Assembly (NCBI GenBank): GCA_040384725.1
Contig: JAZKIS010000009.1
Span: 14,075-78,074 of the forward strand
Origin: Patescibacteria group bacterium
GTDB lineage: Bacteria > Patescibacteriota > Minisyncoccia > Phycocordibacterales > Phycocordibacteraceae
Direction of reading: 5' to 3'
Length of the DNA stretch: 64,000 bases
Shown here: piece by piece, positions 9,637 to 15,250 of the stretch
Numbering within the stretch: position 1 is the stretch's first letter
How the letters are laid out: the number at the start of each line of letters is the position of its first letter
The notes under the pieces: generated by a model
Told to the model about the DNA's origin: nothing
The model's input: only the letters and a program-made list of their open reading frames with translations
Database searches by the model: none
Position numbers and translations under genes: made by a program

Positions 9637-10065
9637 ATGGAAGTAGAGATCAATTACTTAGCGGTGCTCCTCTCGACGCTTGCGTCGGTTATCTTAGGGT
9701 CGCTTTGGTTCGGCCCATTGTTCGGCAAGCAGTGGATGCGCCTCGCCGGCATCCAGATGCCCGGAGAGATAACTCGCGCCATGAAGAGGAGCATGATGCG
9801 TTCGTACGCGCTCGTTGCGCTCACCAGCTTCGTTATGGCAGCGGTGCTCGCGCACATCCTCTTCTACGTTACCGAGTTCTCGGACGTGTTTGGCGTCGAT
9901 ACCGCCATAACAACCGCGCTCTGGTGCTGGCTCGGGTTCGTGGTACCGGCGACCCTCGGCTCCGTGCTCTGGGAAGACCGTCCCTGGAAGTACTGGTTCA
10001 TAACGGCCGGCTTCTGGCTCGTTGCCCTCGTTGTTACGGCCGCGATATTAGCCGTCTGGCGCTAG
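9637..10065 (+). CDS. DUF1761-like small membrane protein
   Basis: Four hydrophobic helices. Start placed at MEVEINYL; the ORF is open from 9592. Confidence 0.5.
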   Translation: MEVEINYLAVLLSTLASVILGSLWFGPLFGKQWMRLAGIQMPGEITRAMKRSMMRSYALVALTSFVMAAVLAHILFYVTEFSDVFGVDTAITTALWCWLGFVVPATLGSVLWEDRPWKYWFITAGFWLVALVVTAAILAVWR

Positions 10066-10108
10066 GATTGAAATAGGGGAGTGTTTTAGGTATTGTACGT
10101 AGACCGGG

Positions 10109-10128
10109 AGCGGGTTCGCCCGCTTTTG
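10109..10128 (+). terminator. Short GC hairpin plus T-tract after the DUF1761 gene
   Basis: agcggg-ttcg-cccgc followed by tttt. Confidence 0.4.
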
Positions 10129-10132
10129 GTAT

Positions 10133-10203
10133 TGCGGGATCGTCTAATGGTAGGACAGCGCTCTCTGGAGGCGTTTATCTAGGTTCGAGTCCTAGTCCCG
10201 CAG
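10133..10203 (+). tRNA. tRNA-Gln (anticodon CTG)
   Basis: Manual cloverleaf. U1:A72 acceptor TGCGGGA/TCCCGCA, as in bacterial tRNA-Gln. D-loop AATGGTA, anticodon loop CT-CTG-GA, T-arm CTAGG-TTCGAGT-CCTAG, discriminator G. Confidence 0.85.
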
Positions 10204-10295
10204 CAATCAAGGAGGTGGTTTCGTGCGTCCTAAGAGCGTGGCTTGTGTTCTGTCAGGCAGGTGTGGAATTCCGCTGGAAAAGGTAGAATTTCAAT

Positions 10296-11357
10296 ATGAC
10301 TGGCCGCGAACTTCCCAAACCAAATACTCAATTCTTGAGTTGGTTTTATGGAGAGCATAAGAAAGGTACTTTGGTACTGAATCCTAAATATCAGCGAAAC
10401 CCGATCTGGTCTATAGGACAGAAATGTTTCTTGATAGATAGTCTTATTTCAGGCTCTCCAATACCTCAGGTATTTATAAACATACAGACTACCGGAAAGG
10501 GTGCGAGCAGGGCTACCCAATATGAGATTGTTGATGGTCAGCAGAGGTTGAGAGCTGTACTAGAATTTATGGACGACGAGTACGCCTTAATTCGCACGAC
10601 TGCGAAATCTTATCCTGTCTCTGACATATACGAACCGCAGATCGGGAAGAAGTATTCCGAACTTCCAGACAGTCTGCAAAGTGCAATATGGAACTATTCC
10701 TTAGCTGTGCAGGAATTGCGCGAATGGAACGATGTCGAAATTCGAGCTCTATTCCGTCGTTTAAATTATGTGGTTGAAAAGTTGTCTAACCAGGAGCTCA
10801 GGCACTCTCAATATTTCGGTGAATTTGTAGGAGCAGTTGAAGGACTCTCATCAGCAAAATTCTGGGATGATTTAAATTTCTTCACTCGAAGAGATTCACA
10901 GCGGATGAAAGACGTTGAATACGTCAGTGAGTTATTTGCGATATTGATTGATGGTATTCAGGACCAGCAAAAAACACTTGATCGTTTTTATGCGGACTAT
11001 GACGTTGTATTTCCACATAAAAGTAGGTATATCTCGACCTTCGGCCGAACACTCGAGTCGTTCAGGACAATTCAAGAGTATCTAGAGGAAAGTCGATTCA
11101 AGAATAAGGCGGATTTCTATACTTTGTTTGCTGCAGTCTCTGAGATAAACACTCGTACTAAAGTTGCAACTGACTTGAGTGAGGCAGAATCAGCATTAAG
11201 GCGATTTGAACAGGAGCTGGCAGCTCCTGTTGAACAGTTAAGAGGAAAGGCAAGTCGTTATTACCAGACGGTTATAGAAGGCCCAAATAAGAAAGCTAAG
11301 CGCGAAGAACGTACAGCTATATTTCGGGAAATCTTATCAAGAGCCCTGAAAACTTAA
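10296..11357 (+). CDS. DUF262 (ParB/sulfiredoxin-like) domain protein
   Basis: N-terminal YQRNPIW...LIDSLISGSPIPQVF...YEIVDGQQRLRAV carries the DGQQR signature of DUF262, the N-terminal module of GmrSD-type enzymes. No DUF1524/HNH is found within the same ORF. Confidence 0.75.
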   Translation: MTGRELPKPNTQFLSWFYGEHKKGTLVLNPKYQRNPIWSIGQKCFLIDSLISGSPIPQVFINIQTTGKGASRATQYEIVDGQQRLRAVLEFMDDEYALIRTTAKSYPVSDIYEPQIGKKYSELPDSLQSAIWNYSLAVQELREWNDVEIRALFRRLNYVVEKLSNQELRHSQYFGEFVGAVEGLSSAKFWDDLNFFTRRDSQRMKDVEYVSELFAILIDGIQDQQKTLDRFYADYDVVFPHKSRYISTFGRTLESFRTIQEYLEESRFKNKADFYTLFAAVSEINTRTKVATDLSEAESALRRFEQELAAPVEQLRGKASRYYQTVIEGPNKKAKREERTAIFREILSRALKT

Positions 11358-11363
11358 GCGCAT

Positions 11364-12044
11364 ATGAGTTTGGCTAGCGAAGAGGTACGCAAATTCATCG
11401 ACAGGGTGCAGGTGGCTGGAAACTACCACCGCGAGCTACTATCCGCGGTTCATTTAAAGACCCATCAGGCTTCGCTTGAAACGATGCTCTCGGAACAGTT
11501 TGTATTTAACATGGTGGTGTATTGGGAAGTTTTTGTGAGTGATCTCCTCCTTTCCTATCTTGTCATGTCCCCAGCACAATACCGCAAAACCCTGCGCGAA
11601 AAGATTCAAGCCTCAATAAAAGATCGTTATGGCAGCGCTGCAAGTAGAACTATTAGTTTCAGAAACGAAACGAGACTTTCGTTAGCTCAAGCAGCAGCCC
11701 TAGTTGACCCAAAAGATTTTAATATATCAGTAATTTCAGCTGATAATTTGGCAAAACGAGCAAACGAGATTCTTGCTGCAAAATATGCGAAGTCCTTTAC
11801 TCTTGACCCGGATGACAGACAGTTTGTAGATTTTCTAATTTCTATTAGAAACTATCTTGCGCACAGAAGTCAGGGATCACGAACTGCCTTGAGAAGCGCG
11901 GTTACATCTCTCCGGGGAATTAACTCTGACCTTAGTGGGAACATTACGAATGTGGGGACCTACCTTAAGGCAAAGAATGCTGCTGACGAGACTCGAGCAC
12001 TTGTCATAGCTCGCCGCCTAGAAGAGTTGGCTCTTAAACTCTAA
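11364..12044 (+). CDS. Putative HEPN-domain protein (Rx4-6H motif)
   Basis: 226 aa, mostly helical, with FLISIRNYLAHRS giving R-x4-H near the C-terminal third. It lies 7 bp downstream of the DUF262 gene on the same strand. Confidence 0.5.
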   Translation: MSLASEEVRKFIDRVQVAGNYHRELLSAVHLKTHQASLETMLSEQFVFNMVVYWEVFVSDLLLSYLVMSPAQYRKTLREKIQASIKDRYGSAASRTISFRNETRLSLAQAAALVDPKDFNISVISADNLAKRANEILAAKYAKSFTLDPDDRQFVDFLISIRNYLAHRSQGSRTALRSAVTSLRGINSDLSGNITNVGTYLKAKNAADETRALVIARRLEELALKL

Positions 12045-12071
12045 AGGATAATGTTCTAGACATAGTAATAA

Positions 12072-12893
12072 GTGCGTGGTTTTATAATAGACATGGATAT
12101 TTCTAAGCTTCCTGCACCGGATAGCGAAGAGCTCAGAGCTCTTGTTGAGAATGGGGTGACAAGAGATATATACGCTGCACTCTACGCGAATATGGATAAG
12201 TCGTTATCCATATCGGAAATCCGTTCCCTTCTAGGACTTGTTTCGGGAGAACAAGAGCATCTAAATCGTCGACTCCGTGATCTTTATGGTGCTTTTGAGA
12301 TTGAACGCACAAGACGCGGCAGGGATACGCTTTATAGATTGGTGTCTCGTGCAGAAAATCCTCATCAGACCGCTGGGCGAATTTCAGCAAAAGTCAGAGC
12401 ATGGATTCTCCGAGATCAACGCTGTAAGCAATGCGGGCGCACCCCTTCAGAAGACAAGATAAAGCTGCACGTCGATCATATTATTCCTCAGGAGTGGGGA
12501 GGCACTGATGCGGAAGAGAATCTACAGGCCCTATGTTCAGAGTGTAATGAAGGGAAGAAGAATTTCTATTCAAGTTTTAATGAGTTTGCGGAGAGCATCA
12601 AACAAGCCATAAGTTACGATGAACCCCACAAGCGTATTGGCGAGTTACTGAAAGCTTTTAATGGAAAACCTGTTCCATCTGACTTGCTAGAAGTGGTAGC
12701 AAAAGCAAAGCAATACCAGGACGATTGGCAGAAAAGAATGCGCGAGTTACGCGAACTTGGTTGGGATTATTCGTTTGAAAAGCGCAGGGAAGGATCTAGA
12801 GTAAGAACCTACTACGTCTTGCTGCACTCAGAGTCGTGGCCTGAGGGAAGTATTCGCGCTGAGATTAGGCGACGAGAACTCGAGAAGAAGTAG
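12072..12893 (+). CDS. HNH endonuclease
   Basis: CKQCG...KLHVDHIIPQEWGG...ENLQALCSECN is the canonical HNH/His-Me finger with a Cys4 zinc site. It has a roughly 120-aa N-terminal extension and a 100-aa C-terminal extension. Confidence 0.8.
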   Translation: MRGFIIDMDISKLPAPDSEELRALVENGVTRDIYAALYANMDKSLSISEIRSLLGLVSGEQEHLNRRLRDLYGAFEIERTRRGRDTLYRLVSRAENPHQTAGRISAKVRAWILRDQRCKQCGRTPSEDKIKLHVDHIIPQEWGGTDAEENLQALCSECNEGKKNFYSSFNEFAESIKQAISYDEPHKRIGELLKAFNGKPVPSDLLEVVAKAKQYQDDWQKRMRELRELGWDYSFEKRREGSRVRTYYVLLHSESWPEGSIRAEIRRRELEKK

Positions 12894-13896
12894 CCTTTGG
12901 TTTCTTCGGGGCGGTTGGTTTTCGGTCACCCTGCTCGATTGCCTTTCTGATTGCCTTTCTGATTGCTTTGCCAACAGCTTCAGCGACGGGAGGAGGAAAG
13001 GCATTACCAACCTGGCGATAAGCTGCGGTTTTTTTCCCTGAGAATTTCCACTCCTTTGGGAAGCCTTGAATGATTGCGGCCATCTGAACAGTCAGGCGGG
13101 GGTCACCATCAAAATCTGCTTGGGGAGCAAACTCAACTAAGCCCTTCCCGTCTACTCCAAGCGCGAGCCACGCTTTTTTCGCTCGTGTGGGTCCCAAATC
13201 AGCACCCCCGTGCTTTTTAGATCCTCCAACTAGTGTTGGTCCAACCTTAGAAGCTTTTTTCCGCCATGCATCAACTTTCTTCCAGCCGGCACTTGCCATC
13301 AGTTCATATAAAGCATCACCAACAGTCACAATCTTTTCCGTATTTCCTATGGGCCATTCGAAATGCTCGGCATACGGTTTCTGTAAGGCAACCATAAGTG
13401 TGCGCGGCCGAAGTTGAGGCACTCCAAAATGTGCTGCATGGAATAGCTTCCACGAGACAACATACCCCATGCGCTCCAACTTCTTTGTAATGACATCCCT
13501 ATAATCTTTGAACTTCGGATCTAAGAGACCTCTTACATTTTCAATCAATACTGCCTTGGGCTGAGTTTCTTTAACGAGCTTAAGCATGGCAGGAAAGAGA
13601 TCACGCTCATCAAGTTCTCCAAGTTGCTTTCCAGCTTTTGAGAATGGGGGGCAGGGAACACCTCCCGCAACAAGATCAACACCTTTGTACTGAGTTCCCT
13701 TAAATTTATTTAAATCTGCTTGAATGACATTCCATTTGGGACGATTAAGTCGGAGTGTATTGCAAAATTGCTCTTCAATTTCTACCAGGGCTGCATGCTC
13801 AAACCCAGCGCGCTCGAGACCTATGGCCTGGCCACCTGCGCCTGCGCAGACTTCCAAAGAGGTTAATTTTTTACTTGATGCCTTAGCCATAAACAT
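12865..13896 (-). CDS. DNA (cytosine-5)-methyltransferase
   Basis: Motif I LEVCAGAGG, motif IV GGVPCPPFSKAG (PCP variant of PCQ), motif VI ENVRGLL, motif X QVGNAFPPP. It is convergent with the HNH gene and overlaps it by 29 bp at the 3' ends. Confidence 0.9.
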   Translation of the reverse strand: MFMAKASSKKLTSLEVCAGAGGQAIGLERAGFEHAALVEIEEQFCNTLRLNRPKWNVIQADLNKFKGTQYKGVDLVAGGVPCPPFSKAGKQLGELDERDLFPAMLKLVKETQPKAVLIENVRGLLDPKFKDYRDVITKKLERMGYVVSWKLFHAAHFGVPQLRPRTLMVALQKPYAEHFEWPIGNTEKIVTVGDALYELMASAGWKKVDAWRKKASKVGPTLVGGSKKHGGADLGPTRAKKAWLALGVDGKGLVEFAPQADFDGDPRLTVQMAAIIQGFPKEWKFSGKKTAAYRQVGNAFPPPVAEAVGKAIRKAIRKAIEQGDRKPTAPKKPKATSSRVLVA

Positions 13897-13914
13897 AATT
13901 CTACCAAAATTGAC

Positions 13915-14943
13915 CTAACTACGCTGTACGGGCAAAGCGCCTAGGAAAATCCTTTTTTCTTTCAAAATAAGTTGATTTTTCAAACACGACAAAAGTTCAC
14001 GCTTCTCCAGGAGCGTCCCTTCCCGCAGGACATATTTCGCATAATAACGAATATCAATATCTTCTGTATCAATTTCGTCAGAATTCCCGGAGACGACATT
14101 TTGAAAACGTCTGAATCTTCTCACCTCGTCCATGAGTTTATGTTTGACCCTTATTTCATCAATGTCTGTTTGATCTAGAAGCGCCTCGAATTGAGCAATC
14201 AGCTCTTCTTCTCGTAGGTATCCGCCACAGCAGTCTCGGTCTTTTGACCTACTACATCCGTAGTAAACGTATCTCGCTGTGAGACCTGTCTTTTTAATGT
14301 GCTTGAATTTTTCTTCAGCAGATACCCCTGAACCGCATAGTCCACAAGTAAGTAGTCGAGTGAAGGCGAATTCCTTCGTCTCACTCCGGACTATGCGGTC
14401 CCGCTTGAGTTGAGCTTGTGTCAGATCGAAGAGCTCTCGCGTGATGATTGGCTCATGCAGTCCGTTGTACCAATTGCCGCTCTTGGCTGGGTATTCGAAC
14501 TGTCCGTAGTAGAAGGGCATACCCAGGATCTTGTGGACGTTGCTGAGACTAAGATGTTTATTGCCACGGGGCGTCCTCAAGTTCAAATCAAACCTTAGCC
14601 AGTGGTATACCTTCCGCCCAGTCCATTTCTCGTACGCGACCTTCTCGAACATTTGCTTAATGATATGAGCTCGTTCCGGATCAGTTATGACATGTCCGCG
14701 ACGATCTGCTCGATTCTGACTTAGGTATCCTGTTGGTGCGGGAGAAGGCCATAGCCCCATCTCGCACCGCATGCGTAGACCTCGCTTCACGTTCACGCTC
14801 TTGTTGTCGTTATCGAGCTTCGCCTGAGAACAGAGAATCATGAGGAGGAATTTCTCGCTCGGCGAGTTGCTGAAGCGCTGCCCGTACGTCCGTATCTCAA
14901 CGAGTGCTTTCTGGTCCATAAGATCGACCAGAGTGCCGAGGTC
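13915..14943 (-). pseudogene. Large serine recombinase lacking the N-terminal catalytic (Ser) region
   Basis: The recombinase domain is retained, with a zinc ribbon (CGLCGSGV...YYGCSRSK..C) and a coiled coil. Homology to the resolvase domain starts only at ...DLGTLVDLMDQKALVEIRTYGQ.. (the late E-helix region). Upstream codons are not recombinase-like and hit a stop at 15049..15051. Confidence 0.7.
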
Positions 14944-14944
14944 T

Positions 14945-15250
14945 CCAGCGTTGCTGGATGCGTTGAAGGAATGCCGGGGTTGGGAAGAGGAGTTACAAGG
15001 AAAGACCGTTGCAGGTACGTCAGCCGGTGTCTGCTTCCTGTCTCGGTACTACTATAGCCTCAGCAATCTAGAGGTTCGAGAAGGTCTCGGACTCTTGCCC
15101 GTTAAGGCACTCGTACATTATCGCTCTGATTATAATGCCCCTAATATTGACTGGGACGTGGCATACCAAACGCTTGATGAGTATGGAGAGAATCTCCCGA
15201 TCCTCGCGCTTCCAGAAGGAGGATTCGAGATCATTGAAAAGACGTTCTAG
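14945..15250 (+). pseudogene. C-terminal fragment of a peptidase S51 (dipeptidase E/cyanophycinase-like) gene
   Basis: GKTVAGTSAGV...GLGLLP... matches the S51 nucleophile region (GxSAG) and the downstream part. There is no N-terminal half. Upstream DNA is the antisense of the recombinase. Confidence 0.5.

Follow-up and report, generated by a model that had tools for sequence, protein, structure and literature searches.

The window analysed here, a stretch of 64,000 nucleotides from a Patescibacteria genome, contains a region between 10 and 14 kb in which the GC content drops to 0.45-0.46, against 0.57-0.60 in the flanks. This low-GC island starts directly after a tRNA-Gln(CTG) gene (positions 10133-10204, forward strand, predicted by ARAGORN), which forms its left border and was considered as context, outside the system described below. 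In the open reading frame scan, two genes were located behind this border on the forward strand. Gene A (ORF1, 10296-11357) codes for a protein of 353 amino acids composed of a DUF262 domain of the ParB/Srx fold and a C-terminal helical ParBDB-like domain. Gene B (ORF2, 11364-12044) codes for an all-helical protein of 226 amino acids, putatively of HEPN type and placed at the periphery of the RiboL-PSP-HEPN family. The TAA codon of gene A ends at position 11357 and the ATG of gene B lies at 11364, which leaves 6 nt between the two genes of this tight operon.

Further downstream and on the same strand, an HNH endonuclease gene (ORF3, 12072-12893; the start retained by NCBI is 12093 and gives 266 amino acids) was found where it had been expected, with an E-value of 1.2e-11 against PF01844. 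On the reverse strand, a C5 cytosine DNA methyltransferase gene (ORF4, 12865-13896; PF00145, E 1.6e-68) is followed by a 5'-truncated large serine recombinase gene (ORF 13915-14919, homology up to 14958) carrying the Recombinase and Zn_ribbon_recom domains. Direct repeats of the tRNA 3' end were searched for at the island borders and none were found, and the promoter and terminator scans of the locus performed no better than on shuffled sequence.

When compared with Pfam, gene A matched one family only, GmrSD_N/DUF262 (PF03235, E 8.7e-20), over residues 20-174 (10353-10817, forward strand). Its translation contains KYQRNPIWS and IVDGQQRLRAV, the latter including the DGQQR nucleotide-phosphate-binding motif at residues 80-84 (10533-10547, forward strand). 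No Pfam match to a DUF1524 or HNH domain was obtained for gene A, and the first-pass annotation of ORF1 as a DUF262 protein with a DGQQR motif and without fused DUF1524/HNH was thus confirmed. Among the PADLOC models, the best match was that of NsnA from the Menshen system (E 1.1e-35, 121.7 bits, model positions 59-383 of 385); PD-T4-2_A (PDLC04027) was matched near full length (E 3.2e-24, 83.7 bits, model positions 47-355 of 363), and so was phrog_2598 (E 1.5e-40).

The best 120 homologues of gene A, which belong to many phyla, all shared 61-72% identity with it. In an alignment of 22 homologues, D80, G81, Q83 and R84, the YQR motif and long helical stretches of the C-terminal part were invariant, and no nuclease motif was detectable in the C-terminal half. 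This half corresponds to the ParBDB domain of the Menshen analysis (PMC12065111), a DNA-binding domain common to NsnA, DndB, GmrSD and SspE. By analogy, gene A is predicted to be an NTP-dependent DNA sensor or regulator. DUF262 proteins resembling ORF1 were also observed on plasmids, where they are either paired with a protein kinase or alone.

In the translation of gene B, the sequence SIRNYLAHRS includes an R-x4-H motif, RNYLAH (11847-11864, forward strand), whose residues R162 and H167 form the predicted catalytic site; the motif lies exactly where it had first been noticed. From amino-acid frequencies, an R-x4-H pattern alone is expected by chance in about one quarter of the proteins of this size. 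In gene B the motif stands above chance because R162, H167 and S169 do not vary among 42 members of the family, whose identity goes down to 19%; E55, N120 and L201 are invariant in the same sample. Among 19 close homologues (39-78% identity), RN.L.HRS was invariant. An exhaustive profile search with the gene B family returned 459 clusters at 50% identity for E<=1e-3 and 97 for E<=1e-30; among the matches listed, nearly all were stand-alone proteins of about 225-250 amino acids, truncated fragments aside.

The assignment of gene B to a known family relies on weak scores. Its match to PF18735 (RiboL-PSP-HEPN) had an E-value of 0.014 and 15.7 bits, under the gathering cut-off of 28.4, and HEPN_Apea (E 0.018), Swt1-HEPN (E 0.14) and the PADLOC Cas13-ApeA model (E ~1e-3) were matched weakly as well. 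PF18735 is the best Pfam family for the lineage: it was matched by 17 of the 42 relatives (best E 8.1e-08), with HEPN_Apea matched by 6, Swt1-HEPN by 4 and Abi_2 by 1. Ten relatives inspected singly scored 18-21 bits against PF18735, all under the gathering score. The AF2 model of gene B is all-helical (pLDDT 85, pTM 0.79), and a Foldseek search of this model against the PDB returned nothing (best E 0.5). Similarly, a profile search of the gene A and gene B families against PDB sequences gave no HEPN or DUF262 match; a marginal match of the gene B family to E. coli topoisomerase I in this search was judged to be due to chance. The PADLOC PD-T4-2_B model was matched neither by gene B (E<=1) nor by its 19 close relatives (E<=0.1) or the 42 diverse ones (E<=0.01). 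Gene B is very probably a HEPN protein, and by analogy it is predicted to act as an RNase effector.

The association of the two genes was followed in 13 non-redundant loci, the window included, which were gathered from ORF2 homologues and, independently, from ORF1 homologues. These are the loci examined that contain a close homologue of gene A or B, and their flanks are all different. In 13 of the 13, a gene of the B family comes immediately after a gene A homologue (phmmer E 1e-118 to 1e-170), the distance between the stop codon of A and the start codon of B being 3-16 nt; the pairing noticed in the window is thus not random and is found in other genomes. The loci were drawn from Patescibacteria, Acidobacteriota, Alphaproteobacteria, Verrucomicrobia and Chloroflexi. 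On average, two A proteins from these loci share 64% identity and two B proteins 41%, and the two identity matrices are correlated (Mantel r 0.74, p ~2e-4), which reveals that A and B were inherited together.

At some of these loci the neighbouring genes are related to defence (SIR2-NB-ARC, Mrr-helicase, RES and HepT toxins), and another neighbour is a Gabija-like pair made of an OLD-type ABC ATPase/TOPRIM gene and a UvrD-family helicase. Other loci are flanked by housekeeping genes and not by defence islands. It was concluded that A and B constitute a conserved, self-contained two-gene cassette. More distant relatives of B (25-29% identity) were found downstream of an ABC ATPase (AAA_21/AAA_15), a PLD-SNF2 helicase or a CBS-domain protein, and one further relative in the same identity range lies downstream of a 151-amino-acid protein without family assignment. 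Such an exchange of partners, seen for the A and B families, would fit with a small HEPN protein acting as the effector and a larger upstream protein acting as the sensor or regulator.

Two E. coli phages carry a comparable arrangement. In vB_EcoM-689R6, a DUF262 gene located beside an integrase is followed by a gene for a 216-amino-acid protein containing LARNACAHKN; in the P2-like phage P2_4B2, it is followed by a gene for a 239-amino-acid protein containing ARNDLAHGS. When the ORF2 family alignments were compared with the small protein of vB_EcoM-689R6 by hhalign, the result was not significant and the RN...AH motif alone aligned. For the small protein of P2_4B2, the match with the ORF2 family was likewise limited to the motif, without significant sequence similarity.

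The relationship of the HNH gene with the A/B pair was decided by comparison of gene neighbourhoods. The first-pass annotation had proposed either a three-component DUF262-HEPN-HNH system or a split GmrSD-like nuclease, in which ORF1 and ORF3 would together form a modification-dependent enzyme. Two observations speak for such readings: in the window the three genes share a strand and are separated by short gaps, and the HNH protein weakly matches both type II and type IV restriction endonuclease models of PADLOC. However, no HNH or Dcm homologue was found in any of the 12 other A/B loci (flanks of 3.5-6 kb on each side, less at contig ends). Furthermore, the HNH domain belongs to PF01844/HNH_5 and not to DUF1524, and PF07510 is matched in none of ORF1, ORF2 and ORF3. 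The HNH gene also has a partner of its own: in the window, the 3' end of the convergent methylase gene overlaps it by 29 bp, and in all three independent contexts in which HNH homologues were examined (L017, L020 and L022) they converge on a C5 methylase gene orthologous to that of the window (E 1e-155 to 1e-172) and overlap it by 29-35 bp, no gene A or B being present nearby. As it is conserved with a C5 methylase and absent from the other A/B loci, the HNH gene lies outside the A/B system. Both readings are refuted by this comparison, and we give them practically no credence.

An endonuclease gene conserved by the side of its cognate methyltransferase gene is a feature of type II restriction-modification, and it was observed in the window as well as in L017, L020 and L022. 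The HNH and C5-methylase genes are predicted to form a separate type II-like restriction-modification cassette, of which HNH would be the restriction endonuclease. In L017, an intact serine recombinase of 457 amino acids adjoins the methylase, and the HNH-Dcm block of the window is syntenic with this recombinase cassette: at the DNA level the two share 67-69% identity in two segments, one covering the greater part of the HNH and methylase genes, the other lying within the recombinase gene. When the L017 recombinase was compared with the window by tblastn, residues 104-444 aligned from position 14958 down to 13942. About 103 residues are thus missing at the start of the window recombinase; in the L017 protein this stretch contains the N-terminal portion of the resolvase domain. 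No Resolvase domain was matched in the window recombinase by Pfam. As the alignment starts at residue 104 of the L017 protein, the catalytic N-terminus has been lost. The A/B pair therefore stands as variable cargo beside the restriction-modification cassette, and both are carried by a decayed serine-recombinase island next to tRNA-Gln in this Patescibacteria genome.

The arrangement of the pair was then set against the described systems. At first it had not been recognised as any of these, a view that does not withstand comparison with the literature. In the computational survey of Anantharaman et al. 2013 (PMC3710099), RiboL-PSP-HEPN is listed as 'operon with ParB' in restriction-modification and defence contexts, and operons of MAE_28990-HEPN with ParB are also reported, with a DNA methylase among the partners. 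The likeness with the window pair resides in the association of a ParB-like protein with a stand-alone HEPN gene. The MAE_28990 operon differs in that it includes a DNA methylase, whereas the methylase of the window is not conserved with the pair; in addition, gene B remains under the Pfam gathering score.

The closest validated counterpart is PD-T4-2 from E. coli ECOR65, annotated as 'DUF262, HEPN', which blocks phage T4 (Vassallo et al. 2022, PMC9519451). By HHpred, its A subunit was assigned to PF03235 (99.7%) and its B subunit to PF18735 (97.8%) and PF18737 (96.9%), and T4 plaquing returned upon deletion of the system in native ECOR65 (PMC9519451). Reviews group PD-T4-2, Menshen and Dazbog as DUF262 systems without DUF1524 and count them as uncharacterised; no mechanistic paper on PD-T4-2 was found in the literature searched. 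PD-T4-2 and the window pair have in common two adjacent genes on the same strand, the first coding for a DUF262 protein without DUF1524 and the second for a small HEPN protein (in PD-T4-2, of the RiboL-PSP/MAE_28990 type). Gene A matches the PD-T4-2_A model but scores higher on NsnA. The PD-T4-2 open reading frames span about 1.54 kb versus 1.75 kb for the window pair. The host is E. coli in one case; in the other it is a Patescibacteria metagenome-assembled genome, as judged by the source names of proteins with 100% identity. Because gene B, like its 42 relatives, fails the PD-T4-2_B profile, the pair is not PD-T4-2 proper.

Menshen corresponds to NsnABC, in which NsnB is an ABC-ATPase/DUF3696 protein and NsnC an inPIN effector (Millman et al. 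2022; PMC12065111). Gene A has the architecture of NsnA, a ParB-DUF262 domain joined to the helical ParBDB domain, but NsnB and NsnC are absent from the window and from the 12 other loci, where a HEPN protein of about 228 amino acids is always downstream; the pair is consequently not Menshen. It is not GmrSD either, as gene A has no fused DUF1524 His-Me nuclease; here, in contrast to GmrSD, BrxU and SspE, the predicted effector is a separate HEPN protein of RNase type and not a DNase. Thus, the window pair falls into the known DUF262 + HEPN kind as a divergent member; this architecture was already described and has been validated experimentally elsewhere. The possibility that the pair belongs to a known family, which the first-pass annotation had itself raised, is largely borne out for the architecture and not for the sequence family of ORF2. 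The pair has the architecture of PD-T4-2 and, by analogy, would have its mode of action as well.

On these grounds, we consider it probable that A and B make up a self-contained anti-phage module of two genes, with PD-T4-2 architecture, in which A would be the sensor and B the HEPN RNase effector. The role in defence is suggested by the activity of PD-T4-2 and by the defence-island neighbours of the pair; the respective functions of A and B, as well as RNA as the target, are proposed by analogy with the DUF262 proteins SspE, GmrSD and BrxU (PMC10952713, PMC12065111) and with HEPN RNases in general. In the proposed mechanism, A would bind DNA via its ParB-DUF262 domain and a helical domain like that of NsnA, SspE and BrxU, and its DGQQR motif would bind or hydrolyse NTP. 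In this manner, A could sense invading, possibly modified, DNA and couple this sensing to nucleotide binding or hydrolysis. It would either keep B inactive or activate B upon recognition of phage DNA. A dimer of B would then form a composite R162/H167 RNase site and cut host and/or phage RNA (tRNA, mRNA or rRNA), which would stop translation and result in abortive infection or growth arrest. The NTP-regulated HEPN effector suggested at the outset is retained to this extent: the operon is conserved and most plausibly encodes an NTP/DNA-sensing regulator with a HEPN RNase effector, ORF2 being very probably HEPN.

Several observations count against this model. Conservation is higher in A, the presumed sensor, than in B, the presumed effector (64% versus 41% mean identity), whereas in usual sensor/effector pairs the sensor is the less conserved of the two. 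The HEPN matches of gene B are sub-threshold, PD-T4-2_B is not matched, the Foldseek search was blank, and at some loci the flanks are made of housekeeping genes.

Two other functions of the pair were weighed. The operon could work as a toxin-antitoxin-like addiction module, with B as a HEPN RNase whose toxicity is constitutive and A simply as its protein antitoxin; DNA would not be sensed, and the pair would mainly stabilise the mobile island that carries it. We regard this as improbable. All nucleotide-binding residues of DUF262 are kept invariantly in A across phyla, and A possesses the helical DNA-binding domain of SspE and BrxU; such an invariant nucleotide site together with a DNA-binding domain goes far beyond the needs of a simple antitoxin. 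Moreover, proteins related to A are paired with non-toxin partners, a kinase for example, and PD-T4-2 confers phage defence (PMC9519451).

In the other alternative, to which we attach a still lower likelihood, B would be a non-catalytic HEPN-like adaptor or regulator and A the active component, working like some ParB-like nucleases as a DNA clamp or nickase that depends on NTP. Nuclease activity has been reported for some proteins of the ParB fold, and Pfam includes PadC and 'ParB-like nuclease' entries; the HEPN assignment itself comes from weak profile matches and an ambiguous fold search. Against it, R162, H167 and S169 remain invariant down to 19% identity, which is typical of a catalytic and not of a degenerate HEPN protein, and unrelated sensor-like proteins have B-family members as their small partners.

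Beyond the two-gene module with A as sensor and B as effector, which we continue to prefer, a more specific proposal may be put forward tentatively. The pair could represent a distinct DUF262-HEPN subfamily without existing model, spread horizontally over at least five phyla including CPR, in which a strongly conserved A protein (57-73% identity across phyla) would control a faster-evolving HEPN RNase, B (33-53%).

Nothing established is overturned by these results; in practical terms, they mainly show that the three-component proposal fails and that this architecture had been described before. The pair adds a widespread and environmentally common lineage, amounting to hundreds of 50%-identity clusters from Patescibacteria, Acidobacteriota, Verrucomicrobia, Chloroflexi and Proteobacteria, to the DUF262 + HEPN class, which is known to be anti-phage through PD-T4-2. 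The PADLOC models used would not call the pair, because its B subunit is missed; the defence content of CPR and of soil metagenomes is therefore under-counted. In addition, a highly conserved sensor and a variable small RNase that are cleanly separate would make a convenient minimal system, which might serve to study how ParB-fold NTPases pass a DNA-sensing signal to an effector acting in trans. If the pair does represent a distinct subfamily, the way in which DUF262, bound to nucleotide and DNA, turns on a separate RNase would be a form of coupling between sensor and effector that has so far been reported for no DUF262 system.

The low-GC island that carries the DUF262 gene (A) and the small HEPN-type gene (B) has a GC content of 0.45 (window 10000-15000), whereas the values in the genome are 0.57-0.60. 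A tRNA-Gln(CTG) gene (10133-10204) lies directly to its left, and when a direct repeat of the 3' end of this tRNA was sought on the right side of the island, none was found. At 12072-14958, the window contains a mobile restriction-modification cassette, composed of an HNH endonuclease gene, a convergent and overlapping C5 methylase gene and a large serine recombinase gene. An intact counterpart of this cassette was present in another locus (L017), with 67-69% nucleotide identity. As the recombinase of the window is devoid of approximately its first 103 amino acids, the island is probably immobilised. The truncation point is abutted by an ORF of 136 amino acids on the forward strand (14840-15250), for which a weak and partial match to peptidase S51 was obtained (profile positions 115-193 of 206, E 0.011). 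This ORF looks like a gene fragment that remained when the island was terminated by a deletion or rearrangement.

In another locus with the HNH/Dcm cassette (L020, 1207-5792), the cassette is preceded by a second Dcm gene and by a gene encoding a 549-aa protein with HATPase_c_3 and Hypoth_Ymh domains, Ymh being a HEPN family in the HEPN classification. The presence of these genes suggests that the position upstream of the HNH gene is a site of exchangeable defence cargo.

At its positions 65-138 (window about 11556-11777), the profile built from 42 sequences of the B family marginally matched residues 317-390 of E. coli topoisomerase I (E 0.0035, 20 bits), which is the region around the active-site tyrosine, Y319. 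Since the E. coli TopA entries were the only type IA topoisomerases matched by the profile, this similarity is probably due to chance.

DUF262 genes were also found with other partners. In an E. coli phage record (L007, ON470584.1, 35567-37278), where the locus has an integrase gene on one side and icd, which encodes isocitrate dehydrogenase, on the other, and in a P2-like phage (L032, LR595873.1, 30104-31979), the DUF262 gene is followed by a gene for a small protein of 216-239 aa that contains an RN..AH motif. For neither of these proteins was a significant match to any PADLOC or Pfam model, or to the B family, obtained. On an Asticcacaulis conjugative plasmid (L008, NC_014819.1, 112098-114240), adjacent to a Tn3 transposase and a resolvase, the gene of a 432-aa DUF262 protein resembling A overlaps the Ser/Thr protein kinase gene that lies downstream of it; the two could form another DUF262-effector pairing.

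Conversely, distant relatives of B (25-29% identity; L014, L015, L016 and L029) are preceded by genes for an ABC ATPase, a PLD-SNF2 helicase, a 151-aa uncharacterised protein or a CBS-domain protein, the latter also having an RN...H motif in its own C-terminus. These pairs may represent additional uncharacterised two-gene HEPN systems.

Across phyla, the 13 A/B loci showed identities of 57-73% for A versus 33-53% for B. The presumed sensor is thus much more conserved than the presumed effector; in defence systems, the reverse is usually observed.
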